NCBI GenBank assembly: GCA_029881675.1
Contig: JAOUMD010000001.1
Location: 2,930-66,929 of the forward strand
DNA: 64,000 bases
From: Minisyncoccota bacterium
GTDB taxonomy: Bacteria; Patescibacteriota; Microgenomatia; UBA1400; PJMF01
Direction of reading: 5' to 3'
Below, one piece after another: positions 13,965-34,312 of the stretch (its first letter is position 1; every line of letters starts with the position of its first letter). The notes below the pieces were generated by a model that saw only the letters and a list, made by a program, of their open reading frames with translations, was not told the origin of the DNA and did no database searches. The position numbers were made by a program, and so were the translations under genes.

Positions 13965-14690
13965 TTATTTATCTATTGCTTCATTCAGATTGCCAATTAC
14001 TTCAGGGATAAAAACGTCATACATAAGGTTTGGTTCCATATCGACAGGAGGTACTCCATCACCATTGTGAATTACTCCTTCACGAGCCACGGTCACTACT
14101 TCAATAAGATTAGGATCATAGCTTCTTCCTAAAATATCTTTGAGGCCACCTAGAATAGCCTTAATAGTAGCTCCTGTACTATAGACATTATCAATAATAA
14201 CAATCTTTTCTCCCGCTTTAATTGCTGATTTAATATGCTTTTCTATTTGTCTACCAAAAGCCATATATTTTGGCTTATCTGGAGAAGTAATCGGATTATA
14301 TACGTAAATACGATCTTCTAAATGTGTCTGAGCTTTTATCTCATCAAAATCACGACTACCTAATAAATCAAGAAGAGGTAGCTCTACTTCATCACAAGCT
14401 TCTGTAATCATTGGCATTGATTTAGAAGAAAATGGGGTAATAGCTAAAGCAACATTATCTAACTTCCCAAGCATCTCAATTAAGGCACTGGTCCCAGCAT
14501 TTTTAACTTCTTCCTCTCTTGGATCAAACCAAGCAATCCAAACTGGCTCTTCATCACTGCCAACGTTCTTTAAAGCTAGTTCTAAGACCATTTGACCAAG
14601 AATTATTTCTAAGTATGGCTGATCATCTCTAAATTGAATATCTTCTGGTCTATAGATAGTGGCTTGATGCTCTAATGATTGTTTTGACAT
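13965..14690 (-). CDS. Type I phosphoribosyltransferase-domain protein
   Basis: PRPP-binding motif 'KIVIIDNVYSTGATIKA' (hydrophobic run, D, then S/T-G-x-T). 241 aa with an N-terminal extension. Substrate unknown. Confidence 0.6.
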   Translation of the reverse strand: MSKQSLEHQATIYRPEDIQFRDDQPYLEIILGQMVLELALKNVGSDEEPVWIAWFDPREEEVKNAGTSALIEMLGKLDNVALAITPFSSKSMPMITEACDEVELPLLDLLGSRDFDEIKAQTHLEDRIYVYNPITSPDKPKYMAFGRQIEKHIKSAIKAGEKIVIIDNVYSTGATIKAILGGLKDILGRSYDPNLIEVVTVAREGVIHNGDGVPPVDMEPNLMYDVFIPEVIGNLNEAIDK

Positions 14691-14755
14691 ATTAACTTAA
14701 TATAGCACTTTGCTATTAATTCAAAAACCCATAGCAATCAAGAATATTAAAAATA

Positions 14756-14784
14756 TTGACAGAATATTATTTGTAACTTAAAAT
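14756..14784 (+). promoter_or_regulatory. Sigma70-like promoter for the HAD gene (TTGACA-17-TAAAAT)
   Basis: TTGACA at 14756-14761, 17-nt spacer, TAAAAT at 14779-14784. Confidence 0.4.
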
Positions 14785-14874
14785 ACTCTAACAAAGTTAA
14801 CTTAGTCAAGAGATCCCCCCGCCTCCCCGCAAATAACTTAACTAACTGTTTCATATAAATAACAGAAAGTCATT

Positions 14875-15516
14875 ATGTTCACAGAAAAAAAATTAATCGC
14901 CCAAGATGTAGATGAGTGTATCTTTAATAGTGTTGATAAACATTATCTTCACTATAAAAAAGAAGCTGAGACTAGAGAAGGAATTGTTGTTCCTTCCCTA
15001 GAAGAAGTAATTAGACTTGGTGGAACCCATGCCTTCTTTGGTCAATTTGAGTGGTATGCACAGATGAATAAAGATAATAGAAATGATGAAAAGTTCAATA
15101 GGGGACAAGAAAGAATAGATGGTTCCCTAGAAGCACTCACATTATTAGAATCCCAACTAGCTGTATATCTTACTACCAGACCAGAGTCATTACTCAGAGT
15201 TACCCAAGAAGAACTTGATAAATATGGCTACCCAGATAGACAAGTAATTTGTAGACCAAAGGAAGTTAACTTCAAAAAGACTACAGAGTGGAAAACATGG
15301 ATGTTAGCTCAGTTAGCTATGCAATTCCAAGCACAAATGTTGATGGTAGATGACTCAATAAACTTACATCAACATCTAAACCATGCCAAACTAAATGGTA
15401 GTAAAGGCTTACTTGATACCATTCTATATGCTGGGCCTATGACACCTAAAGGCAATGGTGAAATGACATGGGAAGAGATTGTCTCATTGATGATGGGTAA
15501 AGAGTTTGCTGCTTAA
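14875..15516 (+). CDS. HAD-superfamily phosphatase, NT5C-like 5'(3')-deoxyribonucleotidase candidate (paralog of 30504..31103)
   Basis: 'LIAQDVDECIFNSV' (motif I D-x-D), 'GSLEALTLLESQLAVYLTTRPE' and 'MVDDS' align closely with the paralog ('IIAQDIDECLFNSV...GSLEALTLLQSMLGIYLTTRPE...MIDDS'). Confidence 0.5.
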   Translation: MFTEKKLIAQDVDECIFNSVDKHYLHYKKEAETREGIVVPSLEEVIRLGGTHAFFGQFEWYAQMNKDNRNDEKFNRGQERIDGSLEALTLLESQLAVYLTTRPESLLRVTQEELDKYGYPDRQVICRPKEVNFKKTTEWKTWMLAQLAMQFQAQMLMVDDSINLHQHLNHAKLNGSKGLLDTILYAGPMTPKGNGEMTWEEIVSLMMGKEFAA

Positions 15517-15552
15517 TATCAGCACTAATTACCTTAAATAATATTACAAATA

Positions 15553-15581
15553 TTTGACTTATAATAATTAAGTGATTATAA
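15553..15581 (+). promoter_or_regulatory. Sigma70 consensus promoter (TTGACT-17-TATAAT) upstream of the argH leader
   Basis: TTGACT at 15553-15558, 17-nt spacer, TATAAT at 15576-15581. Would give a leader of about 240 nt. Confidence 0.5.
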
Positions 15582-15756
15582 TTCCTATTACAAATTAAAA
15601 TTAAATCCGTTCACAGCAGGAGTCGCGCCTTGCAAAACTTGTCTAACAAGTACGGAGCTTCACAAAATTGAAGCCGAGAGAATCTCGTTAAAATTCAAAC
15701 TCTTAATCGCTAAATAGTAGAGAGAGTCATAAAGTAAATAGCAGTGATGTTATTTT

Positions 15757-15828
15757 AAATCAGAGTGGTACCACGAAGTTACTTCGTCTCTGTTCTTATA
15801 AATATTAAGAATAGAACGGAGTTTTTTT
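15757..15828 (+). promoter_or_regulatory. T-box-like leader (antiterminator/terminator) preceding argH-argG. Stem I should lie between about 15590 and 15750 but was not resolved.
   Basis: 'AAAUCAGAGUGGUACCACG' matches the T-box sequence AAUUAGGGUGGUACCGCG at 15/18 positions. An antiterminator is drawable: CAGAG, a 7-nt UGGUACC bulge, ACGAAG-UUA-CUUCGU, CUCUG. A competing helix CUCUGUUCU...AGAACGGAG plus U7 runs straight into the AUG and would act as a terminator or SD sequester. Confidence 0.5.
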
Positions 15829-17247
15829 ATGTCAAAAACAGTAAAACTGTGGGACAAAGGTACCAAATCAAATTCCATAATTGAAAACTACTTAGCAGGA
15901 GATGATATCTTCTTGGACCAACAGTTAGTTCAATTTGATGTTTACGGATCTTTGGCTCACTGCAAAATGTTATATCAAAATAATTTAATTGAGAAAATTG
16001 ACTTTGACCACTTAACTAAAGGTCTTAAACAAATCTTAAAGTTAAATAAAGATGGTCAATTTAACCTTTCACTTTCAGATGAAGATATTCATACCAAAGT
16101 AGAGAACTACTTAACAGAAATATACCCAGAATCTGGAGGTAAACTTCATACTGGAAGATCAAGAAATGATCAGGTATTAGTGGATATTAGACTTTACTCT
16201 AAGGATCAATTAACTGATGTTATTAAATTAGTAATAAATCTAATAAGTGATTTCCAAATCTTTTCAAAAAAACATGAGTTCTTGCCCATGGCTGGTTACA
16301 CTCATATGCAACAAGCAATGCTTTCATCAGTGGGTCTTTGGGCAGATTCTTTCACTCAAAGCTTACTTGACGACCTGACAGTTGTTCAAACTGCCTATGA
16401 CTTAAATGATCAGTCTCCACTTGGCTCTGGGGCAGCGTATGGAGTGTCTCTACCTATAGATAGAGAACTAACTGCTAAACTTCTAGGTTTTAAAAAAGTA
16501 CAAACCAATGCTTTATATTGTCAGAACTCAAAAGGAAAAATTGAATCAACTATAATCCATAGTTTAAGTTCAATCATGAACACCTTGAGTAAGTTTGCTC
16601 AAGACATCTTACTTTTTACTACCAGTGAATTTAATTATTTCTCCGTTCCTAAAAGCTTAACCACTGGAAGTAGTATCATGCCTCAAAAAAATAATCATGA
16701 TGCAATGGAACTGCTGAGAGGAAAAACAAAAGTTATTCAAAGCTATTACTCACTAGTCAGTTCAATCAACAGTGATTTACCGTCAGGATATAACAGAGAT
16801 ACACAGTTAATTAAACAACCTCTCTTTGAGAGCTTCAAAATAACTAAAGAATCTCTTCAAGTGGTGAGTTTATATGTTAATTCTTTGATACCAAATAAGG
16901 AAAATATTAAAAAGAATATATCCAAAGAACTATTTGCAGCTCATCATGCCTATCAGTTAATGAAAAAGAATAATTGGTCATTTAGAAAAGCCTATTCTTA
17001 TGTTGGTAAAAACTTAGATAAGATCCCTAACTATGACCCAATTAAAGTTCTCAAAGAAACTACTACATTGGGTGGACCAGGGAATTTGCAATTAGATTCT
17101 TTAGACAAAAACTTACTCCGTCAGTCCTTAACTTTGTCCCAAAGAAAACAAAACACTCATCAAACAATGAGTAAAATAAACATAAATAATTTAAGAAATA
17201 AAAATAATGAAAAAAATCACACAATATATAAAAGTTGCTTCACATGA
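15829..17247 (+). CDS. argH: Argininosuccinate lyase
   Basis: 'GGKLHTGRSRNDQVLVDIRLY', 'GYTHMQQAM', 'GSGAAYGVSLPIDRELTAKLLGF' are the fumarase/ASL family signatures. Confidence 0.9.
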   Translation: MSKTVKLWDKGTKSNSIIENYLAGDDIFLDQQLVQFDVYGSLAHCKMLYQNNLIEKIDFDHLTKGLKQILKLNKDGQFNLSLSDEDIHTKVENYLTEIYPESGGKLHTGRSRNDQVLVDIRLYSKDQLTDVIKLVINLISDFQIFSKKHEFLPMAGYTHMQQAMLSSVGLWADSFTQSLLDDLTVVQTAYDLNDQSPLGSGAAYGVSLPIDRELTAKLLGFKKVQTNALYCQNSKGKIESTIIHSLSSIMNTLSKFAQDILLFTTSEFNYFSVPKSLTTGSSIMPQKNNHDAMELLRGKTKVIQSYYSLVSSINSDLPSGYNRDTQLIKQPLFESFKITKESLQVVSLYVNSLIPNKENIKKNISKELFAAHHAYQLMKKNNWSFRKAYSYVGKNLDKIPNYDPIKVLKETTTLGGPGNLQLDSLDKNLLRQSLTLSQRKQNTHQTMSKININNLRNKNNEKNHTIYKSCFT

Positions 17248-18457
17248 AGTAAAAGAAAAAAAAGTAGACAAAGTAGTCCTACTGTATTCAGGAGGACTGG
17301 ATACTTCAGTGATGCTCAAATGGCTACAAGACTCATATCAGGCCAAAGTAATTGCACTCACAATAGACATTGGCCAACAAGCTGATGATCTTGAAGAGAT
17401 CAAACAAAAAGCTCTAAATCTAGGTGCCCACAAAGCATATACGCTAGATTGTAAGGATGAGTTTGCTAATGAATATATTGCCAAAGGGATTAAAGCTAAC
17501 GCTTCATACCAAGGTCAGTATCACTTAAGCACTCCAATCGGCAGACCTTTACTTGCAAAAAAAGCAGTAGAAATTGCAAAGAAAGAAGGAGCTCTAGTTA
17601 TTGCCCATGGCTGTACTGGAAAGGGAAATGACCAGGTCAGAATTGAGTCATCAATTCTTTGTTATGACTCTTCCATGAAGATCATTGCCCCTGTAAGAGA
17701 GTGGGCGATGGGTAGAGATGAGGAGTTAAAGTATGCAAAGAAACATAATATTCCAACTCCTCAAGCTCAACAAGGAGTCTCATATTCCTGGGATGACAAC
17801 ATGTGGGGAGTCACTGGAGAAGGTGGGGAAATAGAAGATCCTAAACTTGAACCAAATTATGAAAAAATTCTTCAGGTATGCAAGATTCCAGAAAAGGCAT
17901 CAAGTAAAGCAGAGTACCTTGAGATTACTTTTGATAAAGGGGTTCCTACTCATTTAAACAATAAAAAGGAAAAACTATCTAATTTAATTATTAAGTTAAA
18001 TAAAATAGGTGGTAAACATGGAGTAGGAATTACAACCTTAATTGAAGATAGATTGGTTGGTCTTAAAGTCAGAGGAGTTTATGAAGCCCCTGGTGCTGCC
18101 ATTATTACCAAAGCACATTATGACTTAGAAAAAATTGTCTGTACTCAAACAGAGAATGAGTTCAAAGAAATAATAGATAAAAAATGGGCTTACCTTTGTT
18201 ACTCAGCTAAATGGTTAGAACCAACCATGAGCCATCTCAATAGCTATATTGAGTCAGTTAGTAAAAAGGTAACTGGGGTAGTAAAACTGAAGTTATTCAA
18301 AGGAAACATTACCATTGTTTCAGTAAGTTCACCAAACTCTCTCTTTGATGCTGATTTAGCTACCTTTGATAAGAATAGTAAGTTCAATCAAAACTCTAGT
18401 GCAGGGTTTATTGAGATCTATTCATTAGCGATGAAGACGGCTAATTTGAAGAAGTAG
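17207..18457 (+). CDS. argG: Argininosuccinate synthase
   Basis: 'KVVLLYSGGLDTSVMLKWL' PP-loop and 'VIAHGCTGKGNDQVR' signature. Overlaps the argH 3' end by 41 nt. Confidence 0.9.
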   Translation: MKKITQYIKVASHEVKEKKVDKVVLLYSGGLDTSVMLKWLQDSYQAKVIALTIDIGQQADDLEEIKQKALNLGAHKAYTLDCKDEFANEYIAKGIKANASYQGQYHLSTPIGRPLLAKKAVEIAKKEGALVIAHGCTGKGNDQVRIESSILCYDSSMKIIAPVREWAMGRDEELKYAKKHNIPTPQAQQGVSYSWDDNMWGVTGEGGEIEDPKLEPNYEKILQVCKIPEKASSKAEYLEITFDKGVPTHLNNKKEKLSNLIIKLNKIGGKHGVGITTLIEDRLVGLKVRGVYEAPGAAIITKAHYDLEKIVCTQTENEFKEIIDKKWAYLCYSAKWLEPTMSHLNSYIESVSKKVTGVVKLKLFKGNITIVSVSSPNSLFDADLATFDKNSKFNQNSSAGFIEIYSLAMKTANLKK

Positions 18458-18472
18458 TTAAAAATAGTTACT

Positions 18473-18502
18473 AAAAAGCCCCTATTTAATAGGGGCTTTT
18501 TG
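18473..18502 (+). terminator. Rho-independent terminator after argG
   Basis: AGCCCCUAUUUAAUAGGGGCU hairpin followed by UUUUUG. Confidence 0.7.
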
Positions 18503-18637
18503 TAATGCACATTGATTAAATATCTACTTGATAATAAAATATCAATTAGAATGAACAAATATTTATTAACTACTGGTAATTCAATTATTATCCGCCTAAG
18601 GTGGAGTATTTGATTTAGTTAAAATAATTTAAGATCA

Positions 18638-18662
18638 GAGCCCCGCCTTAGGCGGGTTTTTT
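18638..18662 (+). terminator. Second intrinsic terminator (CCCGCC-UUA-GGCGGG + U6), possibly bidirectional
   Basis: GC-rich palindromic hairpin followed by TTTTTT. A partner hairpin CCGCCUAAGGUGG lies at 18592-18604. Confidence 0.55.
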
Positions 18663-18707
18663 AATTCCCAAAAATTATAAAAAATATAAATCTAATATCT
18701 AATTACT

Positions 18708-20336
18708 ATGGCAAAAAAATTATCAAAACAAACACAGCAAGAAAAAGAATTTCTTGAAAAACTATTTAATGAATCTACAAAAAAAGTAACCTCACAATAC
18801 CTGAAGTTTAGTAAAACTACAGTATCAGAAGCTAAAGACTTTGAGCTTCTAGAACCTCTTTTTCTATTACAAAAAGAAAACTTCTTTAATGGGCTTAGTG
18901 ATTCACTAAACCTTGCAAAAAATGCTCAATCTAAAACACGATTGGAAACTAAAAGAATCTCATACCATAACAAAGAAATGAAAAAGTTTTTAGTTATGTT
19001 GGAAAACACATTTCCTCAAGCTGGAAATATTTGGGTTCTAAATGGTTTAGTTTTCAAAAGACAAGTGGCAGGGCTAAAAGATCTAACTGGCTTTAATAAT
19101 AAAGAAGGACTAATCATAGATGTACTTAACTCAGCAGCATCATTGTCATTAGGAGCTCAAAACCCATGGCTGACAAAAATGGATTATTTAGAAGACCTAT
19201 TGGAAGTTAGGGATAATATTTGTGCTGCCTATCATCCAGGAGTTAGACAAGTTTTTACGCTAAAAAAATTAGCAAACCTCTACCCAAATAAAAATGTTAA
19301 AGATGTTGTTGTGCATACAGAATCATCGGGGAGTGTTGTTGATTCAATTGCGATTGAGTCAGCTTCAGCCTTTGCAGAAAAACAATTAGGAAATGTTAAC
19401 AACAAAGTACTTGCAGTAAATGGAACTTGGGCTGGTGGCTATGGATCAGCCAGAGAAGGATCAGGCTTTGGAGTAGACAATCAGCAAGTTAAGAAAGCTG
19501 GAAAGAATACCTGGGTTGACCGTTGCTTACCTGCTCCTATTAAGAAAAATAGAAAGATATTCCTGGACCTACTAAAAGAAAAACTTTCTAATCAAAAAGT
19601 AGCTGGTATTTATTTAGAACCAGATGTTGTGGGTGATTTAGGTCTCTTCTCAGTTGACAAACAACTATTAGAAGCTGTTAAAAAACTAATGCTCAAACAC
19701 AATCTACCAATCATTTTAGATTGTGTGCAACAACTTGGCAGATCTGGTAGTTACTGGGGAGAGAACGTTGATCAAGTATTTAATGATTACCCACTATTGA
19801 TCTTAACTACTGCAAAATCAGCTTCAAATGGACAACCATTTGGCTTTGTCTTAATGCCAAAAGAAATCGGAGATTGTGCATATCCAGTCAGTCAAATTAC
19901 TACTAACCAGATGAATGGACCGTTATTAAGATCATTAGTCGTTGCTGAAATCTTATCTAACAAACTATTTCAAAAATGGCTACAAAAAAAATCTAAAGAT
20001 ATAGAAAAAGTAGCTCTTAAGTATGGTTTTCAAAAGAATAATTTAGGTCTTAGAGGCAAATACTTAAACAGGGGTATTTACGTTGGGAATAACGATCTAG
20101 TTAAGCTAGTTCAATTAACTCTTTTTATAGAAGATGGCATTCTTGTTGGGGCAACCCCCAATAGCATTAGATATCAACCAATGCTATTGGAATATAGTGA
20201 AACTAATCTTTATGTAGCAGAAACAATCTTTAGAAAAGTAAAACTAGTTAAAGAAGGTAAAGTATCATCAGAAGTAGAAAGTATTTATAAAAAGATGAAT
20301 AATACTGTTTCTGGATTGGCTAGGGATAATATCTAA
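18708..20336 (+). CDS. Class-III (PLP) aminotransferase-like protein with about 150-aa N-terminal extension (ArgD/GabT-like?)
   Basis: 'ILDCVQQLGRSGSYWGE' resembles the class-III motif D-E-V-Q-x-G-f-G-R-T-G, and 'LTTAKSASNGQPFG' sits where the PLP-Lys lies. Placed in an arginine-gene context. Confidence 0.45.
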   Translation: MAKKLSKQTQQEKEFLEKLFNESTKKVTSQYLKFSKTTVSEAKDFELLEPLFLLQKENFFNGLSDSLNLAKNAQSKTRLETKRISYHNKEMKKFLVMLENTFPQAGNIWVLNGLVFKRQVAGLKDLTGFNNKEGLIIDVLNSAASLSLGAQNPWLTKMDYLEDLLEVRDNICAAYHPGVRQVFTLKKLANLYPNKNVKDVVVHTESSGSVVDSIAIESASAFAEKQLGNVNNKVLAVNGTWAGGYGSAREGSGFGVDNQQVKKAGKNTWVDRCLPAPIKKNRKIFLDLLKEKLSNQKVAGIYLEPDVVGDLGLFSVDKQLLEAVKKLMLKHNLPIILDCVQQLGRSGSYWGENVDQVFNDYPLLILTTAKSASNGQPFGFVLMPKEIGDCAYPVSQITTNQMNGPLLRSLVVAEILSNKLFQKWLQKKSKDIEKVALKYGFQKNNLGLRGKYLNRGIYVGNNDLVKLVQLTLFIEDGILVGATPNSIRYQPMLLEYSETNLYVAETIFRKVKLVKEGKVSSEVESIYKKMNNTVSGLARDNI

Positions 20337-20346
20337 ATGAACTTAT

Positions 20347-21864
20347 TTACCCAATACTTCTTCTTAAAACAGATGCTAACTTTACTTCATAAGTAACATC
20401 AATTTTGTTTTCTAACTTAGTACCAACTAAGCTTGATAGCTTTAAATGTTCTAATTGATATGATGTGGTTGGTTGGAGAGTCTTACCCAAATACTCTTCA
20501 ACCAGCTGAACATCTCCCATTACTTGAGACCATCCTAAATTCTTCTGAGCCAGTTGAGATAAGTTTTTCTTATTTAAATACTTACCAGCAAATGATAAAT
20601 CATCTTTAAAATATAAGTAATATTTTTCAAGAATAGGTAATAATCCTTTTTCTCCAATTTCACGAATCCCTCTTCCAGTTCCTATAAACTCAGGAGGTAT
20701 CCCTAATGAATAAAGAGAACCAGTAAAACCAATTGCTCTTGGAAGAGATTTCTCTCCCATTGTTCTTGAATATCCTAGTAAACCAGTTTGATTAAACCTT
20801 TCTCTTCTTTTAGGAATTGAACTAGCAACTATGTTAATTTCATCAGCTAGATAAGTTAAGCTTTCTTGATAATATTTTTTAAATATTTCAATAATTTGAA
20901 TCATTTTCTTCTCATCCTTAGCTGGAATTTTAACCGCCTTTCTTTTAGGAAGTGTTCTTTCAAGATAACTAACGGCTTTCTTAACTTTGTTTTCACTGAA
21001 ATCATACCTAAAAGCACTCTGAAGAAGAACAGTTCTAACTCCAGAGTATTCTTTTGAAAATTCTTCAACTCTATCTGGACTAAGACCTCCTCTGAATGGT
21101 AGTAAGCCTGGCCCTAGAATAGGATAGATATCAATGCCCATCTTTTTCTCAAGGGAAGAATAGCGAGATAATGCAATCTTTGTAGCCAAAACAGAACTTA
21201 CTAGCCCGGCAGTTAAAGCAGGGTCAGAACGAGCAATTAGAGGTCTTATATAAGTAGGTTTAGATCCAAACTTTTCTGATAACAAATTAAAATATTCTTC
21301 TATCATTTGATCAGAATTAATAATAATATCAACATCTTCAATTAAAGGGATAAGCTCGATGTTTTTCAAAGTATCTTTTGTATGTAATAACTTATGCTGC
21401 AAAGAACTTAACTCATGAAACGCGTCATGAACACTAATCATTTCCTGAGCTGATTGAACCATAGGAAGGATTAACTCAAATAATGGTTTTGAATGTAAGC
21501 CTGCTTTTTTAGTAATGTTTGCAGCACTAAATAGAGCCATTAATGATCGCCCTAATCTAAATTCATTCTCTGATTTGATATCAGGTATTCTGAAAGTTAA
21601 AAATAAATCCTTTCCTAGCTGATTCTTTCTAAAGAACTCAGGGTACTCTCCAAGTAACTTCTCAATCACAGCTTCGTCTACAAGCTTCCCCTCCCAATCC
21701 CACATACATTCTGAAATACCTATTTGAGAATATGCTAGATATGATTCTTTAATTTCATCAGCCGTACTAATAAATTCATTCTTTTGAAAAAATGGCGACT
21801 TAGAATGGTCTGGATGTTGTGTTGCCATTGTGGCTGGTATTTTACGTTTATACATATTGAACAA
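20347..21864 (-). CDS. Phosphoenolpyruvate carboxylase, archaeal-type (PpcA-like)
   Basis: About 505 aa. N-terminal 'KIPATMATQHPDH' matches the conserved TQHPD start of archaeal-type PEPC, and the size fits atPEPC. No other family fits as well. Confidence 0.5.
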   Translation of the reverse strand: MFNMYKRKIPATMATQHPDHSKSPFFQKNEFISTADEIKESYLAYSQIGISECMWDWEGKLVDEAVIEKLLGEYPEFFRKNQLGKDLFLTFRIPDIKSENEFRLGRSLMALFSAANITKKAGLHSKPLFELILPMVQSAQEMISVHDAFHELSSLQHKLLHTKDTLKNIELIPLIEDVDIIINSDQMIEEYFNLLSEKFGSKPTYIRPLIARSDPALTAGLVSSVLATKIALSRYSSLEKKMGIDIYPILGPGLLPFRGGLSPDRVEEFSKEYSGVRTVLLQSAFRYDFSENKVKKAVSYLERTLPKRKAVKIPAKDEKKMIQIIEIFKKYYQESLTYLADEINIVASSIPKRRERFNQTGLLGYSRTMGEKSLPRAIGFTGSLYSLGIPPEFIGTGRGIREIGEKGLLPILEKYYLYFKDDLSFAGKYLNKKNLSQLAQKNLGWSQVMGDVQLVEEYLGKTLQPTTSYQLEHLKLSSLVGTKLENKIDVTYEVKLASVLRRSIG

Positions 21865-24808: not shown

Positions 24809-24951
24809 AATTATTTACATATTTATTATTAATTTAGTATTAATTAATATATAAGTTAATATGATTAATGTAAATATGTTAAATTAAGTTATTGTGTCGT
24901 AATTGACTCCATTATCATTTTTTGGATATTAAAGACGTATATAATATTGTC

Positions 24952-25515
24952 ATGAAACACCTTCTACTAACATCTCCCCTCAACACTTACTACCACGTTA
25001 GACATGGCCAAACAGACCTTAATTTAGAAAAAAAGTACCAAGGAACAAGTGATTATCCTCTTAATGAAAATGGTATTAATCAAGCTGCTAGAGTTAAGTT
25101 AGATCAAGCTCCTGATCTTGTCTTTTCCTCACCATTTAAGAGATCTACAAGGACAGCTGAGATTATCACAGGTATTACACCCAACCATGATTCTAGAATT
25201 AATGAAAAAGATGGAGGAGAAATAGAAGGTTGGAGTTATGACAAAATATTTAAGAATTACCCAGAAATTAAACCAGATTTCAATAACCCTTTGGAAGATC
25301 TTCTTTCAATACACCTTCCAAGTGGTGAATCTGACTTAGATGTAATAAAAAGACTCCATCAATTTATTTATGAACTAGAAGAAACACACAAAGGTAAATG
25401 TATTTACATCTTTGGTCATTATGGGACTGGAGTAGCAATGAGATATATCTTTGGTAAAACAAAAGAAGAGATATTCAAACATGTTGAGAATTGTAATGTA
25501 GAAAAATTAAGTTAA
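24952..25515 (+). CDS. Histidine phosphatase superfamily protein (phosphoglycerate-mutase-like)
   Basis: 'YYHVRHGQTDLN' is the R-H-G catalytic motif. The ORF-track start at 24922 is a TTG, so the ATG at 24952 is preferred. Confidence 0.65.
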   Translation: MKHLLLTSPLNTYYHVRHGQTDLNLEKKYQGTSDYPLNENGINQAARVKLDQAPDLVFSSPFKRSTRTAEIITGITPNHDSRINEKDGGEIEGWSYDKIFKNYPEIKPDFNNPLEDLLSIHLPSGESDLDVIKRLHQFIYELEETHKGKCIYIFGHYGTGVAMRYIFGKTKEEIFKHVENCNVEKLS

Positions 25516-25518
25516 ATA

Positions 25519-26010: not shown

Positions 26011-26021
26011 GTGGAATAAAT

Positions 26022-27148: not shown

Positions 27149-27299
27149 TTTTTTTTACAGTACCTTCATTATCTCAAAGGCTGCAATGTATAAGGCTTAT
27201 ACAATAAATTCACATTTAGTAAAGATAAATGTTCAAATATATTTAATAGTCATAGTTCTTGACTATTAGTATCTATTTATACGGTTATAATTGAAAAAG

Positions 27300-27852
27300 A
27301 TGAACAATATTAATTTTATTAAATACCACTTCAAAAACGATACAGACAAATCAAAGGTCCTAAGATGGCAACATGGATTATTAGTTAGTAAAACTCTTAA
27401 AAAATTATCTAGAAAATAATAAAGAAACACCAAAGAATATTACAAATCTTCTTAATGCTGCACTAGGGCATGATCTTATTGAAGATACCAATTGCTCAGA
27501 AGAAGAAATAATTAAGCAGTGGAATAATGAAGTCTTAATATTGATAAAAAGCCTAACAAACACTAAGGGCGATGAGAACTTTGATGATTACCTTAATAAT
27601 CTAAAACAAGCTTCTGATGAAGTAATTATCATCAAACTAGCTGATATAAAAACAAATACTCAAAGTTCAATAAAAAATTACCAAATTTTAAAAAAAGAAT
27701 GGTTTATTTCATTTTGGATTCCACTTCTCAAAGACTATTTAGAAATATTTAAAGAAACTACTTCTAATAAATATCCGTTAACAGTTAAAAATCTTATTAA
27801 AGATATTAAGGCTGATTTTAATAAAATAATAGAAATAACTGATAATAACTAA
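27300..27852 (+). pseudogene. Frameshifted or truncated HD-domain phosphohydrolase, paralog of the gene at 35169..35678
   Basis: Frame 0 reads 'MNNINFIKYHFKNDTDKSKVLRWQHGLLVSKTLKKLSRK' then stops at 27417. Frame +1 continues '...NITNLLNAALGHDLIEDTNCSEEEI...IIIKLADIKTN', which aligns to 'ALSLLYHDVLEDT...LLFKLYDKTSN' of the intact paralog. One frameshift separates the two parts. Confidence 0.45.
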
Positions 27853-27853
27853 C

Positions 27854-29725
27854 CTACTCCCACTCAGTGGTCCCGGGTGGCTTAGCAGTTAAATCATAAA
27901 CAACTCTGCTAATACCTTTTACTTCTTTAAGTATTCTAGAAACCATTGTATTTAGGTACTTCTCTGGAAAATCTACATTAGGAACTGCTGGTACTCCAGT
28001 CATAAAATCATTAGTAATAATGGTTCTAATAGCAATAGATCTATTTCCTTTTTTGGAGAAGGGTAGGGGAAGAGAAATAACAGGAACCTGACTTACCACT
28101 TTCATTAAATCATTTTCAAATAACTCCTCATTAACAATCTTATCTGCCTGACGTAATTGTTCAATTGTTTCTTTATTTAACTTTGTAGGAGTAATTTCAG
28201 TTACTGGGCCTGACTCTTTCTCTCCAAATAGATACACAACTCTATTTATTTTATGAAAAAGTTTAGGAATACTCTTTGCCATCTCAAATAATACAGGCCA
28301 ATCCATCTCACCACTAATGGCAACAACATAACTATATGTACGACCATCACCTTGAACACCAACTGATTGGATAGGAAGTAATGTTACTTGATGTTTATCT
28401 GTACAATATTTTTTCAGTCTTTTATTAATCTCTTCAAAATCATCTTCTATATATGGCTTCTTGGTACACAGAATACGAATAGCTAGACCAGGACCAGGGA
28501 ATGGATGTCTCCAAACCAAGTGTTTAGATAAACCTAGTTTTTCTCCTAACTGACGGACTTCATCTTTATGATAATCAGCTAATGGTTCAATCACTCTGCC
28601 TTGATTACGTAACTTTCTAACAAGCTCAGTATCATTATGATGAGTCTTAATTACATTGGCATTTTTGGATATGTTATCTGAAGCACTTTCAATTAGATCT
28701 GGTCTTAAAGTACCTTGAACTAGGTAGATATCTTCATCAGGTATATCTAATTCTCTTAATTCTTTTTCTGAAACTTTGATAAAGGTATCTCCAATTATTT
28801 TTCTCTTTTTCTCAGGTTCAATTGTCTCATTTAATGGGAGTGTTTCTTCTCCTTTTATCATAGTTTTGGCTGATAAAAATTCCCTAGAGACATCTACCAC
28901 TTTTAGTTTAAGACCGACTTTTCTTAAGGCTTTTTCAACTTGCTCACTCTCCTTATATCTCATAAAGCCATGATCAATATGAAGTGCAAATACTTTCTCA
29001 CTTCCTAATGCTTTTGTCACCAAAGCTGCAACTACAGTTGAGTCAACTCCACCACTAACTAAGACCAAAGCATAACCATCACCGACATGATTCTTAATTA
29101 ACTCAATGGCTTTTTCTTCACGATCTTTCATCTTATATATTGGCTTTAACTTAGCTACTTTAAATAAGAAATTAGCTAAGATATCTTTACCATTTACTGA
29201 TAGATCAACTTCTGGGTGAAACTGGACACCAAACCATGGTTTATTTTTATGTTCAATTCCGGCAATTAATTTTCCAGATTTAGCTATTACTCTAAACTCC
29301 TTACCAACCTGATCTACTGTGTCTCCGTGAGTTAACAATACAGTTTGTGTTGAGTCTAATGAATCAAAAAGTAAACTATCTGTTTCTACAGAGATATCAA
29401 AAACACCATCTTCTCTAACCGCTTTTTTTTCTACAGTGCCCCCATGGACATAATTAAGCAGTTGCATGCCATAACAAATACCAAAAATTGGGACAGAGAC
29501 TGAGAAAAGATCTGGATTATATTTTGGAGCATTCTCACCATAAACACTTTCAGGTCCACCTGAAATAATAATTGCTCCATATTGTGCTAACTCTGATGAA
29601 GGTGTTTCTAAAGGAAGGATAATTGACTCAACAGCTAGTTCACGAATTCTTCTATCGATAACTTTTGCATATTGTGCACCAGCATCTAGAATAGCTACTT
29701 GCTGTTTTTTATTAGGTTCAGTCAT
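27854..29725 (-). CDS. guaA: GMP synthase (glutamine-hydrolysing), long form
   Basis: N-terminal class-I glutamine amidotransferase ('GICYGMQLL', and the catalytic His in 'VQFHPEV') plus PP-loop 'ALVLVSGGVDSTVVAAL'. At 623 aa it is longer than the typical bacterial GuaA. Confidence 0.8.
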   Translation of the reverse strand: MTEPNKKQQVAILDAGAQYAKVIDRRIRELAVESIILPLETPSSELAQYGAIIISGGPESVYGENAPKYNPDLFSVSVPIFGICYGMQLLNYVHGGTVEKKAVREDGVFDISVETDSLLFDSLDSTQTVLLTHGDTVDQVGKEFRVIAKSGKLIAGIEHKNKPWFGVQFHPEVDLSVNGKDILANFLFKVAKLKPIYKMKDREEKAIELIKNHVGDGYALVLVSGGVDSTVVAALVTKALGSEKVFALHIDHGFMRYKESEQVEKALRKVGLKLKVVDVSREFLSAKTMIKGEETLPLNETIEPEKKRKIIGDTFIKVSEKELRELDIPDEDIYLVQGTLRPDLIESASDNISKNANVIKTHHNDTELVRKLRNQGRVIEPLADYHKDEVRQLGEKLGLSKHLVWRHPFPGPGLAIRILCTKKPYIEDDFEEINKRLKKYCTDKHQVTLLPIQSVGVQGDGRTYSYVVAISGEMDWPVLFEMAKSIPKLFHKINRVVYLFGEKESGPVTEITPTKLNKETIEQLRQADKIVNEELFENDLMKVVSQVPVISLPLPFSKKGNRSIAIRTIITNDFMTGVPAVPNVDFPEKYLNTMVSRILKEVKGISRVVYDLTAKPPGTTEWE

Positions 29726-29754
29726 ATTTATTAAATTTTAAATATATTAAATAA

Positions 29755-30360
29755 CTAATTATCAAGAATAATCTTGCCTTCTTCTGAAATAGATTCTATT
29801 GAAATAAGAGAGAAGACGGGTACTCCTGTTTCTTTTTCTATCTTTTCAACTCCACCTTGCCACTTCTTATCAAAGATTACCGCCAAACCAACAATCTCTA
29901 CACCATAATCTTGTAAGGCCTTTATTGCAGCAACAGCAGTACTACCATGAGCTACAACATCATCTACTATCAGCAATCTCATGCCAGGTTGTAAAAAGCC
30001 TATCTGACTAACAATATCATCTTGCCCTGTAGTAAAAGACTTATTACTAAACTTTACTACTGACTCCCAAGAGCTAGGTGCTATCTTAGTTCTTTTTGAA
30101 GGAAGAATTTTTCTAATTCGAAGCATATCTGCAACAATAGATACTAAGCGAGAACCTGCATCAGGTAATCCCACAATTGCATCTATTCTCGGATAATCAA
30201 CATAATGCTCAGCCCAAGATCTAGAAACAAGAGACAGTAAATCAGGATCTAAAGAAATATTAAACGGAACAGCTGTAATATAGCCCTTTTGAGCGTCTTT
30301 AACTTTTGCTATTGAAAGAAAACTATTACGAAGTATGGAGAGGGAGTCTGTGTTGTGCAT
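29755..30360 (-). CDS. Type I phosphoribosyltransferase, purine (adenine/xanthine) PRTase-like
   Basis: 'IDAIVGLPDAGSRLVSIVADML' and 'LLIVDDVVAHGSTAVAAIKALQDYGVEIVGLAVIFD' closely resemble the APRT/XPRT core. Lies 30 nt upstream of guaA on the same strand. Confidence 0.65.
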   Translation of the reverse strand: MHNTDSLSILRNSFLSIAKVKDAQKGYITAVPFNISLDPDLLSLVSRSWAEHYVDYPRIDAIVGLPDAGSRLVSIVADMLRIRKILPSKRTKIAPSSWESVVKFSNKSFTTGQDDIVSQIGFLQPGMRLLIVDDVVAHGSTAVAAIKALQDYGVEIVGLAVIFDKKWQGGVEKIEKETGVPVFSLISIESISEEGKIILDN

Positions 30361-30503
30361 AAAAGTATGCTACTTATCATAACACTAAGTAGATAATTAA
30401 TTCTTTCCTTATTTGACAATTATTAGGTGAATTAATAATTAATCCTACACCTCATAGACTCTTTAGATATTTTTTTTCATAAGTTAAGAGTGACAATCCC
30501 TAT

Positions 30504-31103
30504 ATGAAAAAAGAAATTATCATTGCTCAAGATATAGATGAATGTCTATTCAATTCTGTAAAAAAACATTATCAGGAATTAACAAAGATAGGAAAAAAAC
30601 TAGGTTGGACTAATTTGCCAACTTATGAAGAAGTTTGCTTACTGGGTGGAACACATGGTGCATATGGTAAACAGACTGGATACTGGGAAATAAATGAAGA
30701 AATGAGAAATAGCTCTGAATTTAACCAAGGATTAGAACCAATTGAAGGGTCACTTGAAGCTCTTACTCTCTTACAATCAATGCTTGGGATATATCTAACT
30801 ACTAGGCCAGAAAATTTAACTTTAATAACAGAGGAAGAACTTGATGAAGCTGGTTTTCCCAAAAGAGAAGTTGTCTGTAGACCTAAATCAATCCCATTAG
30901 AACACACTACTGAGTGGAAACTAGATGTCCTTAGGTATTTAGCACAAGAGAAGACGGCTACTATGATTGATGACTCTATGAGTTTGCATAATGCCATCTT
31001 AAAAGCAAATGATCCTAGAATAGAAACTGTTCTTTTTCAAGGTCCTATGACTCCAAAGGGTAAAGGTAAAACATGGAAAAAAATTAGAGAAGAATTAAAG
31101 TAG
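30504..31103 (+). CDS. HAD-superfamily phosphatase, NT5C-like (paralog of 14875..15516)
   Basis: See the paralog alignment under 14875..15516. Divergently paired with a PRTase, as the first copy is. Confidence 0.5.
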   Translation: MKKEIIIAQDIDECLFNSVKKHYQELTKIGKKLGWTNLPTYEEVCLLGGTHGAYGKQTGYWEINEEMRNSSEFNQGLEPIEGSLEALTLLQSMLGIYLTTRPENLTLITEEELDEAGFPKREVVCRPKSIPLEHTTEWKLDVLRYLAQEKTATMIDDSMSLHNAILKANDPRIETVLFQGPMTPKGKGKTWKKIREELK

Positions 31104-31238
31104 TAATTATTAATATCTTTTAGCATGAATAGTTATTAATTTTAAAATATTTTGACAATCATTCTTCCAAAGTATAAAATTATTTTTCAGAGCTTAGATA
31201 AAAAAGAAAATTTCTTTGTATCTAAACTCTGATTTTTT

Positions 31239-31862
31239 ATGACAAACAAAAATAATGGAATAATAATAGCAATCGTTGGACCACACTATAGTGGAAAATC
31301 TACTTTATCTCAGAAATTATTTCATGAGAGTAACTTCTCAACAGTAGAAGAAAAATGGCTTGAAGATCCATTTACACAATTTCGCAAAAAAGGTGACTAC
31401 TTAAAATCACAAATATGGTTTCTTACAGAAACTATGAAAACAATGCTTGAAGCCATTAACATGAAAAATAATGGTTCTAAAATTGTCTTAGATACTTTTG
31501 TAAATACTACCCGAGCATTTTGTAGATCTAAACTTTCTACGCAAGATTTTAAAATATTTAACATTGTTTTTGACAATATTGTCAAGGATTTTCCTTTACC
31601 TGATCTAATAATCTATCTCACAGGATCAGTAGATGCTCTTAAACAAAGAAGTATTATTAGAGCCAAATCGGGAACTGGTCCAGATAGTGATAAAAACGTT
31701 TCTCTTGAATGGATAAAAAAATCTATTGATGCAAATGAAGAAGAATTTGGAAACTGGACCAAAACACCGATAATTAAGATTGATGTTTCAAATAAAGATG
31801 TAATAAATAACAAATTAGATTACAACGAACTTTTACAAAAGGTCATTAACACCCAGAACTAA
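31239..31862 (+). CDS. P-loop nucleoside/nucleotide kinase, deoxynucleoside-kinase-like
   Basis: Walker A 'IIAIVGPHYSGKSTLSQKL' at the N-terminus. About 207 aa with dNK/dNMP-kinase-like spacing. Specificity unknown. Confidence 0.45.
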   Translation: MTNKNNGIIIAIVGPHYSGKSTLSQKLFHESNFSTVEEKWLEDPFTQFRKKGDYLKSQIWFLTETMKTMLEAINMKNNGSKIVLDTFVNTTRAFCRSKLSTQDFKIFNIVFDNIVKDFPLPDLIIYLTGSVDALKQRSIIRAKSGTGPDSDKNVSLEWIKKSIDANEEEFGNWTKTPIIKIDVSNKDVINNKLDYNELLQKVINTQN

Positions 31863-31996
31863 TTTATATCTCAATATATTCTATTTAATAAATTAATTTC
31901 TATAATATGAAATTTTTCTTCTTTATATTCTTTTCTATGTTTTTTTCTTAAAAAATTACGATAATAATTAGATTTCCTCACATAATTCTTGACTCC

Positions 31997-34312
31997 ATGG
32001 TCAAAAATAATTCATTACCAGATGAAATAATCTACAACATTAGATTATTAAATTCTATTAGAATCATTATGGTAAAAGAAATACAATCCTTTGCCCCTCA
32101 GGCAGAACAACTAAGACAAAGACGAGACAGTTGGTTAAGAATGTTTGATAAAGACTTAAGATCTAAAATGTCTGAGCGACAAGGTTTTAAATCAGAATTA
32201 CCCTTAACTGCTCATTTCTTAATTGACGGATCAGTAAAAATTCCCTTTGCAGAGTTTTCTCAACTGCCTGACTGGATGAAAAAATTCTTCCTTGACGATA
32301 GAGTTTCTCGTCCACCATCAGTCTCAGTTTTTTCAGATTACAATGATAGTTTAGAACATCCAGAAGTTTTAGCGTCAGTTCAAAATAACACTAAAGATAT
32401 AGTTCTAAGAGGGGGTCGTTTTTGGGATTTTGATGGAAGTAAAGCAAACTATGGACCAGACGGGGCAGAAGCAGTTGAACTACTCTTTGAAAACATTAAC
32501 GGAAATATGTCAATAATAAATCAATTAATTAATTTTGAACCTCAAAATGAATTTGAATGGTTGGCAAGAATTGCAGCATGGGAATATATTAGAAATGATT
32601 TTTGTGCTGTCTATTATTCTTTAAAATGTAGAATTGCGAAAGTTGATGATGCTTCTGCACATGAATTGGGTGTTATTGATCACGCACTTGAATATATTTC
32701 AAATAGATACTTTGACAGTATCCTCATGTTTCAAACAGATCCCCATAGAGGTTCTAGAGAATTAAGTGAGATAGTGAATAATGCAGAAGAAATAAAATCT
32801 ACTTTAAGTGAGTTTGTTTCTGATCCTCAATTTGAAGGGCGAGATCTACTCAGATCTCATAGAGAAGTTAACAACCCACTATCATTAATGAATGCTTTTA
32901 GATTAATTTATAAATCTGACAGTGATTCTAATGAACTTAGTTATACTGATGAAATTAAAAATAATGATGCCATTTTAGCTCCTCTTTATGGGGGAATTGA
33001 TTTGGCCTATGCTTTCAGATATGCTCTCGGTGATGGGCAAAGATATATTGAACAACTTCTAGATACTAAGCTATGTGATGATAAAAAATTTGTTAAAGTT
33101 TTACCTGTACTCTCAAAACTAGGAAGTAAGGGTGTTGTTAGATCCCAATTATCTAAGATTGATTCAGTAATTCCAAATTTAAATTCAGATGAGTCTGTTA
33201 ATGGTAGAGAGAAGGGCTGGTTGGCTAAAGAAATTCCAGATGCCAGAAGTATTCTAGTTATTGATGACTCTCTAGCGACAGGTGGATCAGCGGTAGTATT
33301 CAAAGATTGGGTCTCTGAAGCACTTGGACATGATGTTGAAATGGAACTTAGAGTAATTTATGCCAACCTAAGATGGTCAAAACACCAATGTCCAATAGAA
33401 GATTTAATGGCAGCAGATCCTATTACTCAAACTCCAATTACTAGAAGCATGAAAAAGGCTCTATATCCACTTGGTAGTAGATTTATGCCAGATGCAGTAA
33501 GCAATCATCTACAACAAAAAACAAAACGGACTTTTTCAAGTTTAACTGATGCAATGCCAGAGATAACTAAAATGCATCAGAAAAAAACTATTGAAGCTGT
33601 TGGCTTTGATCTTGATGACACACTAATACTACGTACTGTTGATGCTAAAGCAAGAAGAATCATGATTAACCATTCTATACTTAGACTTCTAAATCAGAAC
33701 GGGATTACTATAGATCCCGATCTATATGCAGAACGTAGTTATAAAATTCTTAATAGGGAGAGGGGATTATCTCAAACTAATCCCAACCATCCTATTGATA
33801 TGGATTCTTGTAATAAAGAAATTTTAATTGACCTAGGTATAACAGATAAAGCTCAATTAAAAATCTTAGCCCCACTAATGACTCTTGAAGAACTTAAAGT
33901 AGATCAAAAAATTGTGATTCCAGCTCCTGGAGCAAGAGAGATATTAGAAGAACTAATTAGCTTAGGAATAGACTTTGGAATATTTTCAAATTCTCACTAT
34001 CTTGTCCAACACATTGAACAAATTCTTATTGCTGCTGGGATTGATGATCTACTAATAGATAGAACTCTTCTAACCTCAGCTAATCCAGGTACCCCTCAAA
34101 AACCTGATGGACAAGCAATAAAAAATCTTGCTAAAGAAATGGGTACCATAGTTCAAGACCTTGCATATGTTGGTAATTCATTCCAAACAGATGTGGTTGG
34201 TTCGACAAAGAGTGGCGGAGTTTCAATATATATACCCCAACCAGTAGATGCTATAAGTAGAGCAGAAATAACTAAAATAAAAAATTGGAAAGAACAATTA
34301 GCCAATGTCTAA
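31997..34312 (+). CDS. Multidomain protein: unknown N-terminal domain (about 400 aa), then a type I PRTase domain, then a C-terminal HAD phosphatase domain
   Basis: PRTase motif 'ILVIDDSLATGGSAVVF' near aa 420. HAD motif I 'AVGFDLDDTLI', motif II 'GIFSNS', and a motif III/IV region 'K...VGNSFQTDVVG'. Confidence 0.55.
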   Translation: MVKNNSLPDEIIYNIRLLNSIRIIMVKEIQSFAPQAEQLRQRRDSWLRMFDKDLRSKMSERQGFKSELPLTAHFLIDGSVKIPFAEFSQLPDWMKKFFLDDRVSRPPSVSVFSDYNDSLEHPEVLASVQNNTKDIVLRGGRFWDFDGSKANYGPDGAEAVELLFENINGNMSIINQLINFEPQNEFEWLARIAAWEYIRNDFCAVYYSLKCRIAKVDDASAHELGVIDHALEYISNRYFDSILMFQTDPHRGSRELSEIVNNAEEIKSTLSEFVSDPQFEGRDLLRSHREVNNPLSLMNAFRLIYKSDSDSNELSYTDEIKNNDAILAPLYGGIDLAYAFRYALGDGQRYIEQLLDTKLCDDKKFVKVLPVLSKLGSKGVVRSQLSKIDSVIPNLNSDESVNGREKGWLAKEIPDARSILVIDDSLATGGSAVVFKDWVSEALGHDVEMELRVIYANLRWSKHQCPIEDLMAADPITQTPITRSMKKALYPLGSRFMPDAVSNHLQQKTKRTFSSLTDAMPEITKMHQKKTIEAVGFDLDDTLILRTVDAKARRIMINHSILRLLNQNGITIDPDLYAERSYKILNRERGLSQTNPNHPIDMDSCNKEILIDLGITDKAQLKILAPLMTLEELKVDQKIVIPAPGAREILEELISLGIDFGIFSNSHYLVQHIEQILIAAGIDDLLIDRTLLTSANPGTPQKPDGQAIKNLAKEMGTIVQDLAYVGNSFQTDVVGSTKSGGVSIYIPQPVDAISRAEITKIKNWKEQLANV

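Follow-up and report, generated by a model that had tools for sequence, protein, structure and literature searches.

Does a phosphoribosyltransferase (PRTase) that lies beside, or is fused to, a protein of the HAD superfamily mark one coupled reaction? The question is raised by a 64,000-nucleotide stretch of a Minisyncoccota bacterium (contig JAOUMD010000001.1), the whole of which is called the window here. Its GC content is ~33%, and the NCBI names of identical proteins, together with the NCBI taxonomy, assign the host genome to Candidatus Pacebacteria (candidate phyla radiation, CPR; Minisyncoccota, formerly Patescibacteria/CPR). Two divergent gene pairs (PRT-A/HAD-A and PRT-B/HAD-B) and one fusion protein, termed X, bring the two superfamilies together in the window. 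Previously, these cases were taken as one functional linkage seen three times, in which a base and phosphoribosyl pyrophosphate (PRPP) would give a nucleoside monophosphate (NMP), and the NMP a nucleoside. The present study finds that the pattern is real and partly new, but closer in appearance to salvage than to a special nucleoside pathway. With a probability of about 0.5, we read the locus as a salvage and interconversion island that holds two separate things, the HAD pairs and the operon of X. This reading is built on domain content, the paralogy and fold of the HADs, gene order, gene overlaps and the conservation of these features.

The region from 27.8 to 40.5 kb holds guaA, PRT-B, HAD-B, a deoxynucleoside kinase gene (dNK), X, a nucleoside-hydrolase-like gene (IUNH), a gene for a 169-aa protein with an HDxxED motif, six NDT-like paralogs, a NUDIX gene and a methyltransferase gene. 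Judged by this clustered gene content, it is a nucleotide salvage island. The original prediction had held the genes to be nucleotide-metabolic, which agrees with guaA, PRT-B, dNK, IUNH, the NDT-like genes and NUDIX. It had also called the arrangement unusual for simple salvage; since the surroundings are a salvage island, that part finds no support. The genes on which the argument turns are the following.

13965..14690, minus strand: PRT-A, a divergent PRTase-like protein of 241 aa (PF00156, 19.7 bits, below cut-off)
14875..15516, plus strand: HAD-A, an NT5C-like HAD hydrolase of 213 aa (49% identity to HAD-B)
27854..29725, minus strand: guaA, GMP synthase, 623 aa (NF000848, 496 bits)
29755..30360, minus strand: PRT-B, a type I purine-type PRTase of 201 aa (PF00156, 48.4 bits)
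30504..31103, plus strand: HAD-B, an NT5C-like HAD hydrolase of 199 aa; a 143-bp spacer separates it from the divergent PRT-B
31239..31862, plus strand: dNK-family deoxynucleoside kinase of 207 aa, first gene of the dNK-X-IUNH operon (PF01712, 55 bits)
31997..34312, plus strand: X, a three-domain protein of 771 aa (probably 747 aa, start 32069), from its open reading frame (ORF) and homolog alignment
32069..32881, plus strand: N-terminal domain of X, aa 25-295, with relatives only within the X family
32882..33556, plus strand: middle domain of X, divergent type I PRTase-like, aa 296-520 (PF00156, E 0.0013)
33584..34246, plus strand: C-terminal HAD-IA domain of X, aa 530-750 (PF00702, 37.7 bits)
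34305..35153, plus strand: IUNH, an IU-nucleoside-hydrolase-like protein of 282 aa (PF01156, 60.2 bits)

The three associations compared

The ORF listing gives the same coordinates as the original prediction, and both motifs quoted there for X are present (ILVIDDSLATGGSAVVF at aa 419-435 and FDLDDTLI at aa 537-544). Since homolog alignment indicates M25 (nt 32069) as the start, translation of X probably begins there. The paralogy of the two HADs was likewise confirmed, with 49% identity over the full length (E=8e-66).

The correspondence between the pairs and the fusion did not survive comparison. In hhalign alignments, PRT-A, PRT-B and the PRTase-like domain of X aligned only at the PRPP loop, and HAD-A/B gave no HAD-HAD match with X, whose HAD domain is of a different subfamily. 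The shared linkage holds only at the superfamily level. X is no Rosetta stone for the two pairs, because its fused domains do not correspond to the separate genes. The PRPP loop itself, defined as a hydrophobic strand and two acidic residues followed by xx[ST]Gx[ST], was found in PRT-B, X and the PRT-A family, and the second acidic residue is lost in the PRT-A of the window. Segmental duplication was considered as the origin of the two pairs and ruled out; they are not a duplicated block, because PRT-A and PRT-B align over the PRPP loop alone.

These comparisons bear on a dedicated two-step route, in which two gene pairs and one fusion would convert a base and PRPP via the NMP into an unusual nucleoside, a cofactor precursor or a signal. 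That two non-homologous PRTases adjoin the same HAD family speaks for such a route, as does the divergence of PRT-A and of the PRTase-like domain of X, which is large enough for a non-standard acceptor to be conceivable. However, the fused domains are not specifically related to the genes of the two pairs, and biosynthetic-cluster features were not found in the vicinity. On these and the points given below, we regard the dedicated route as unlikely.

HAD-A and HAD-B are predicted nucleotidases of a new family

HAD motifs I-IV are invariant in HAD-A, HAD-B and six database relatives (D10-x-D12-E-[CT], LTTR, K139 and IDDS). The invariant residues D10, D12, T99/T100, K139 and D156/D157 are those expected of HAD superfamily phosphohydrolases. 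Neither protein matched Pfam or NCBIfam at E<=0.01, HAD-A giving only 18 bits to Acid_phosphat_B, and the family profile found nothing at E<=10 among PDB sequences. Thus, Pfam, NCBIfam and the PDB profile search did not place HAD-A/B in the NT5C family (PF06941) to which the original prediction had likened them.

At the level of fold, the comparison fares better. The AlphaFold2 (AF2) model of HAD-B is confident (pLDDT 94.9, pTM 0.90), and Foldseek matched it to HAD folds with a C1 cap, that is, to the Rossmann-like HAD fold with a cap. The best TM scores (0.62-0.63) belong to the human mitochondrial and cytosolic 5'(3')-deoxyribonucleotidases, which makes NT5C members its closest structural relatives. 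BT2127, a HAD-type pyrophosphatase, is also among the matches, with similar E-values and the highest identities (19-22%). "NT5C-like" is therefore, as far as the model goes, the best description available for HAD-A/B at the fold level, by a small margin and without family membership. The deoxyribonucleotidases (human cdN/mdN and the bacterial NT5C-like 3bwv, PF06941) have no detectable sequence-level similarity to HAD-A/B; their motif I reads DxDGV, whereas that of HAD-A/B reads DxDEC, and HAD-A/B have invariant cap motifs of their own (GGTH and FN). Mammalian cdN and mdN act opposite deoxynucleoside kinases.

A scan of GTDB genomes with the HAD-A/B profile returned no relative, and tblastn of HAD-B against phage genomes gave no match. 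The family is small, lineage-restricted and new, and it is apparently confined to Pacebacteria-like genomes. Related loci (labelled L001-L022; P0006 and P0012 are homolog labels) provided its gene contexts. Among the HAD-B-like contexts, the window alone has a PRTase neighbor. The HAD-B relatives of L001 and L002 are followed, 2-4 nt downstream, by a PRK/uridine-kinase-like gene, and the contig of P0006 carries a PRK gene on the opposite strand, two genes from the HAD. The HAD-B of the window also neighbors dNK. The only expected product that the predicted neighbors of the HAD family have in common is an NMP or dNMP, not pyrophosphate (PPi). From the neighbors and the modeled fold, we infer that HAD-A and HAD-B would dephosphorylate (d)NMPs.

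The proximity of the fold to nucleotidases is also what the dedicated route would call for. However, the pairing of HAD-B relatives with kinases argues for a general role at the NMP level.

The likeliest partner of PRT-B is guaA

That PRT-B is a type I PRTase is clear from its 48.4 bits against PF00156 (gathering cut-off, 26.3 bits) and its PRPP loop, LLIVDDVVAHGST. Among NCBIfam models, XPRT scores highest, with 63 bits against an equivalog cut-off of 177; XPRT and APRT models are the nearest, all below their cut-offs. A gap of 29 bp, in which no terminator-like site falls, separates the gene from guaA, its downstream neighbor on that strand; this suggests a route from xanthine via xanthosine monophosphate to guanosine monophosphate (GMP). 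Judged by this arrangement, PRT-B most likely works with guaA rather than with HAD-B. The logic is that of xpt-guaA, and it does not inform us about HAD-B. Furthermore, the PRT-B/HAD-B adjacency was seen in this genome only. A dedicated route is weakened on both counts.

In GuaA itself, the NCBIfam model (512 positions) aligns with residues 10-498, and the end of the GMP_synt_C domain aligns with residues 562-622. These alignments imply that GuaA carries an insertion of ~60 residues in its C-terminal dimerization domain.

PRT-A and its recurrent divergent HAD neighbor

The claim of a type I PRTase in both pairs stands for PRT-B, but PRT-A, at 19.7 bits, stays below the PF00156 cut-off, though it belongs to a PRTase-like family. 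This family comprises 24 proteins, all at least 57% identical. PF00156 matches at E<0.01 were obtained for 13 of 19 members (best 1.2e-5). Against the PDB, 11 of 16 weak matches of the family profile were PRTases, nearly all of them APRTs (E 0.15-1.6). The two top-scoring PDB matches were designed TIM barrels and were taken as artefacts. PRT-A thus represents a very divergent PRTase-like family, which is new and apparently confined to Pacebacteria-like genomes.

In four of nine independent contexts (the window, L003, L005 and L017), PRT-A has a HAD-family gene as its divergent neighbor, with differing outer flanks. Adjacency is therefore conserved in part: the PRT-A/HAD pair recurs, whereas the PRT-B/HAD-B pair is unique to this genome. 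The recurrence with differing flanks is among the points in favor of a dedicated route.

The spacer between PRT-A and HAD-A is 184 bp in the window and ~620-650 bp in L003 and L005 (in L003 at about 5288-5905). In L005, it holds a Cys-containing ORF of 126 aa on the strand of PRT-A (5403-5783, minus); L003 shares DNA similarity, and the ORF is absent from the spacer of the window. Alignment of the PRT-A/HAD intergenic regions revealed no operator in common. In L017, a UPRTase, a PNP_UDP_1 phosphorylase and another PRTase also lie nearby. Upstream of PRT-A in L014/L015 are an M20 peptidase and a P-loop kinase.

X is a three-domain protein

By its sequence, X is made of an N-terminal domain, then a divergent PRTase-like domain and, last, a domain of the HAD-IA type, an architecture that is new. 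A phmmer search of 1.84 billion representatives with the N-terminal 520 residues found only 10 clusters at E<=1e-10. The length is 715-761 aa in seven and 622 aa in one, and two (467 and 537 aa) are without the N-terminal domain; all except the 622-aa member keep the C-terminal HAD. The N-terminal domain (~270 aa) had no match in Pfam, NCBIfam or PADLOC, and its relatives were found only inside the X family. It has the conserved motifs FLIDGS, LRGxRFxDxDGK, AAWxYIRND and DLxRSHRE, and AF2 confidence is low there.

The middle domain has a PPi-loop-like APLYGG (aa 328-333) and a PRPP loop, VIDDSLATGGS (aa 421-431; ILVIDDSLATGGS), in which D423 and D424 are invariant in 13 sequences. Across the family, this region holds two invariant motifs, APLYGG.D in a strand-loop and VDDS.(A/G)T.GS, with P329 and G332 invariant in the former. 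PF00156 matched 6 of 12 family members at E<1 (best 3.3e-7), and the homolog P0012, at 26.5 bits, exceeded the cut-off. All 17 PDB matches of the middle-domain profile were PRTases (APRT, GPATase; E 0.2-2.5). In the low-confidence model of X, the predicted strand-loop-helix at APLYGG and VIDDSLATGGS would fit the PRTase core, a fold composed of a five-stranded sheet, the PPi loop, a flexible loop and a hood. Foldseek with this low-confidence model returned only HAD matches, and none for the N-terminal or the PRTase-like domain.

For the C-terminal domain, the HAD assignment holds in fold prediction, with a pLDDT of 80-92 and Foldseek matches to HAD-IA structures at E 3e-7. PF00702 matches aa 532-733 with 37.7 bits, and the best NCBIfam model, TIGR02253, reaches 47.8 bits, below its cut-off. 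The motifs are FDLDDT (I, D538-x-D540), FSN (II, S664-N665), KP (III, K702) and GNS...D (IV, N727...D732). Motif I (33608-33622) reads FDLDDTL in the Pacebacteria-like clade and FDLYETL in distant members, with Tyr at the Asp+2 position; the DLYET of the latter resembles the motif of 2-haloacid dehalogenases. The first position of motif IV is Asn instead of Asp in all family members. The proposed PRTase-HAD fusion is thus secure for the HAD, which passes Pfam, and for the conservation of the fusion, but the PRTase-like domain of the window copy stays sub-threshold.

X belongs to a conserved operon with dNK and a nucleoside-hydrolase-like gene

In the window, the start of IUNH overlaps the stop of X by 8 nt, and only this junction of the operon overlaps. 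The order dNK-X-IUNH recurs with start/stop overlaps of 4-8 nt in L008, L011/L012 and L021 (8 nt in L008 and L011/L012), among unrelated flanks. The L008 and L011/L012 relatives are 54% identical, and their flanks differ, with recG and nusB/rnc/rpsP in one and DUF1295 and DUF805 in the other. L021 (38% identity) has the same gene order, preceded by an NDT-like/thymidylate-kinase fusion. What the short contigs L009 and L010 show agrees with the dNK-X-IUNH order. L022, from a metagenome-assembled genome (MAG) labelled Pseudomonadales (26% identity), has the hydrolase, X and then a DeoC/LacD-family aldolase, the X ORF being interrupted only by masked Ns. L020 is short and was left out of this comparison. 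Orthologs of dNK lie immediately upstream of X in L008, L009, L011/L012 and L021, and the hydrolase adjoins X homologs in these loci and in L010. The firm partner of X is the nucleoside-hydrolase-like protein, and in the Pacebacteria-like clade dNK is a partner too. None of the other X loci contains HAD-B or PRT-B. The conserved dNK-X-hydrolase operon, as deduced from gene order, is new.

The best sigma-70-like match within 27.7-35.3 kb (TTGACA-17-TAAAAT, 11/12) lies at 31152-31180 on the plus strand, between HAD-B and dNK, and hints that dNK-X-IUNH would be transcribed separately from HAD-B. In the promoter/terminator scan as a whole, the count of promoter-like sites equals the shuffled expectation and is at chance level.

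The partners of X are hard to reconcile with a route from base to nucleoside. If the HAD of X dephosphorylated the product of the PRTase-like domain, the adjacent hydrolase would close a loop from base via NMP and nucleoside back to base. The invariant partner would then destroy the very product proposed for a dedicated route. Together, the conserved dNK and hydrolase would undo the sequence, and the precedent of ShosT (see below) couples its domains through PPi hydrolysis instead. The coupling as originally formulated is therefore not upheld.

Comparison with ShosT and other known systems

In ShosT, an N-terminal HAD-fold domain has pyrophosphatase (PPase) activity and a C-terminal PRTase domain binds PRPP; coupling through PPi hydrolysis has been proposed (PMC11961720, PMC12961424). 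Like X, ShosT (of ShosTA; PDB 8zvb/8zvd/9w2p) carries in one polypeptide a HAD domain and a non-canonical type I PRTase-like domain with extended loops, and the two domains are proposed to act on one reaction. However, ShosT has ~430 aa and the order HAD then PRTase, whereas X has ~750 aa and the order N-terminal domain, PRTase-like domain, HAD, with an extra N-terminal domain of 270 aa. X has no PADLOC match to ShosT and no DprA-like ShosA neighbor; its partners are dNK and IU_nuc_hydro (window, L008, L011 and L021). On this sequence comparison, X is not a member of the ShosT family. Our search of the literature on CPR salvage, PRTase-HAD fusions and "PRTase-CE" yielded nothing beyond the ShosT papers. 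The coupling of PRTase and HAD in one protein is already known from ShosT, and nucleotidase/kinase substrate cycles are known as well.

A ShosT-type coupling would make the HAD an inorganic PPase that pulls phosphoribosyl transfer forward, chiefly in X and less so in HAD-A/B. In its favor, ShosT itself joins a HAD-fold PPase to a PRTase, and such a coupling was proposed from structures and assays (PMC11961720, PMC12961424). The similarity of HAD-B to BT2127 noted above points the same way; furthermore, bases supplied by the hydrolase and a PPase would form a coherent one-way salvage route for the X operon. Several findings count against it. The kinases beside the HAD-B relatives release no PPi. 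X lacks a PADLOC ShosT match, its profile match to the ShosT HAD is marginal (E 0.05) and below many generic HADs, and its domain order is reversed. We hold this coupling to be possible, with the odds clearly against it.

Alternatively, X, and perhaps PRT-A, could be a toxin or defense effector akin to the PRTases of ShosT/RqlHI, acting by depletion of PRPP or purines, with antitoxin-like or unrelated neighbors. In its favor, PRTase-like domains do work as toxins in ShosTA; X homologs are few and patchily distributed, reaching the MAG labelled Pseudomonadales; dNK has a weak PADLOC match to VakA; and RHH-tailed proteins and HTH regulators are abundant nearby. But PADLOC gave no match for X, PRT-A or the HADs, and no DprA-like partner was seen. 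X overlaps the hydrolase here, and dNK and the hydrolase in its relatives (four lineages), and lies beside core genes such as recG, nusB, rnc and rpsP. Phage homologs are wanting, as tblastn of the N-terminal 520 aa of X against phage genomes gave no match. The lack of a PADLOC match, the reversed order, the lack of a DprA-like neighbor and the core-gene setting thus make a defense or toxin role of X very improbable.

The analogy drawn earlier with α-ribazole formation by CobT and CobC holds for the formal chemistry, a phosphoribosyl transfer to a base followed by 5'-dephosphorylation, but not for the families. Among the proteins concerned, Pfam and NCBIfam gave no CobT- or CobC-family match, and a His_Phos_1 gene (24922-25515) does not lie beside any PRTase. 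CobT, a NaMN:DMB PRTase, falls outside type I and draws on nicotinate mononucleotide (NaMN) instead of PRPP; CobC, in turn, belongs to the histidine phosphatases and not to the HADs.

A proposed scheme for the island and the points against it

In the reading we prefer, a salvage and interconversion island, HAD-A and HAD-B would act as (d)NMP phosphatases opposite NMP-forming enzymes, namely PRT-A, PRT-B and dNK here and the uridine-kinase-like kinase in relatives. Such synthase/nucleotidase substrate cycles could balance pools and interconvert bases, nucleotides and nucleosides, one possible use being to feed the neighboring NDT/DNPH1-like enzymes and kinases. In the separate operon of X, the hydrolase would free bases from nucleosides and the PRTase-like domain of X would re-attach the freed bases to PRPP. 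The HAD of X would remove PPi, as proposed for ShosT, or trim the product, and dNK would cover deoxynucleosides. All substrates, the direction of flux and the catalytic competence of PRT-A (especially of its N168 copy) and of the PRTase-like domain of X are predictions.

Several observations weigh against this scheme. Scanned alone, the middle domain of X gave 18.5 bits with PF00156 (E 0.0013), which is sub-threshold, and full-length X gave no PF00156 report. The AF2 model of X, built from a 4-sequence alignment, is poor outside the HAD (pLDDT 58.8). Because of the DxYxT in distant homologs and the motif IV Asn in all family members, the chemistry of the X HAD may not be that of a standard phosphatase. 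The family PRPP loop of PRT-A is IIDDVYSSGAT, and the window copy reads IIDNVYSTGAT, with N168 replacing a nearly invariant Asp. Since this Asn stands at the second acidic position of the loop, the PRT-A of the window may be weakly active or regulatory. In five of the nine contexts (L013, L014/L015, L016, L018 and L019), no HAD gene lies within 4-5 kb of PRT-A. A kinase or PRTase beside a nucleotidase is formally a futile cycle. CPR bacteria generally rely on scavenged nucleotides; with 64 kb of the genome seen, the lack of de novo synthesis here is our assumption, drawn from what holds for CPR bacteria in general.

Some of these points would also fit a locus with no specific coupling, in which nucleotide genes cluster loosely and the PRTase-like parts of PRT-A and X have degenerated into domains for ligand binding or regulation, of the PurR/PyrR kind. 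Both regions fall below the Pfam threshold, and the window PRT-A carries D168N. PRT-A is without a HAD neighbor in the five contexts just named, HAD-A stands without PRT-A in L004, and gene order in the island is fluid. However, the PRPP loop and the PPi-loop-like motif are invariant across the X family (D423, D424, P329 and G332). Furthermore, PRT-A and its divergent HAD neighbor recur although their flanks differ. If ~56 genes were ordered at random, both PRTases would each lie beside a different HAD paralog with p ~0.003, a value whose null model ignores functional clustering. We therefore consider the absence of any specific coupling improbable.

A more far-reaching proposal, which we offer as speculative, would make X an undescribed multifunctional nucleoside-processing enzyme with a non-canonical acceptor or reaction, helped by its N-terminal domain. 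Its operon would then be an undescribed pathway in CPR bacteria and a few others, and the PRT-A/HAD pair a base-to-nucleoside route feeding the NDT/DNPH1-like array.

The scavenging enzymes of CPR bacteria are poorly defined, and the locus provides the HAD family, the PRT-A family and the X operon as testable pieces. X is a housekeeping-context counterpart of the ShosT toxin, and an answer for either protein might shed light on its counterpart. Should the HADs prove to be ordinary nucleotidases, and X an enzyme of ordinary salvage, the gain would be useful annotation and not new biology.

NDT-like arrays, a candidate regulator and other genes

The remaining genes of the island, and a putative regulator gene beside PRT-A, are the following.

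13101..13634, minus strand: HTH177, a putative regulator of 177 aa (HTH and RHH-like), downstream of PRT-A; no Pfam match
35169..35678, plus strand: 169-aa protein with an HDxxED motif, HD-hydrolase-like; without a Pfam match
35682-37931 (minus strand), 38074-38643 (plus strand) and 39959-40528 (plus strand): six NDT/DNPH1-like paralogs with an RHH-like tail (PF05014)
38633-39067: NUDIX (PF00293)
39054-39956: methyltransferase (profile match)

The six NDT-like paralogs have diverged to 23-31% identity. Each has 186-189 aa, with a Nuc_deoxyrib_tr/DNPH1-like domain and a C-terminal RHH-like tail (RFNxxL...IRxLIxEEM). The Glu of the G-x-E motif, which we take to be the position of the NDT/DNPH1 catalytic nucleophile, is kept in three of the six and absent from the other three. 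Lactobacilli use NDT and dNKs to supply dNTPs (deoxynucleoside triphosphates), and the island likewise has a dNK and multiple Nuc_deoxyrib_tr genes, but its NDT-like proteins carry the RHH-like tail and half of them are without the Glu. Comparable arrays flank PRT-A or HAD-A in L003, L005, L013, L016 and L019; L018 carries comparable genes of 183-190 aa without family assignment. The nucleoside product of a dedicated route could supply such an array.

Inspected by eye, HTH177 looks HTH-like in its N-terminal part and RHH-like in a C-terminal segment. Its relatives, located by tblastn, are the commonest neighbor of PRT-A; they lie immediately upstream of it in L013, L016, L018 and L019, with the NDT-like arrays beyond in L013, L016 and L019. 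In L004, a homolog adjoins HAD-A. These positions make HTH177 a candidate regulator of the salvage genes.

The gene of the 169-aa protein comes next after the hydrolase gene in the window. The motif of this protein reads HDVLEDT, and a 48%-identical homolog (L006, 246-737) lies directly upstream of a HAD-B-like gene.

Elsewhere in the window, a SAM-I/IV riboswitch at 6026-6142 on the minus strand (57 bits, above the gathering score) lies directly upstream of an S-adenosylmethionine synthetase gene (4876-5994, minus strand). An archaeal-type phosphoenolpyruvate carboxylase gene (PF14010, 444 bits; 20347-21864, minus strand) lies next to genes for an aspartate-type aminotransferase and glutamine synthetase and to argG and argH.

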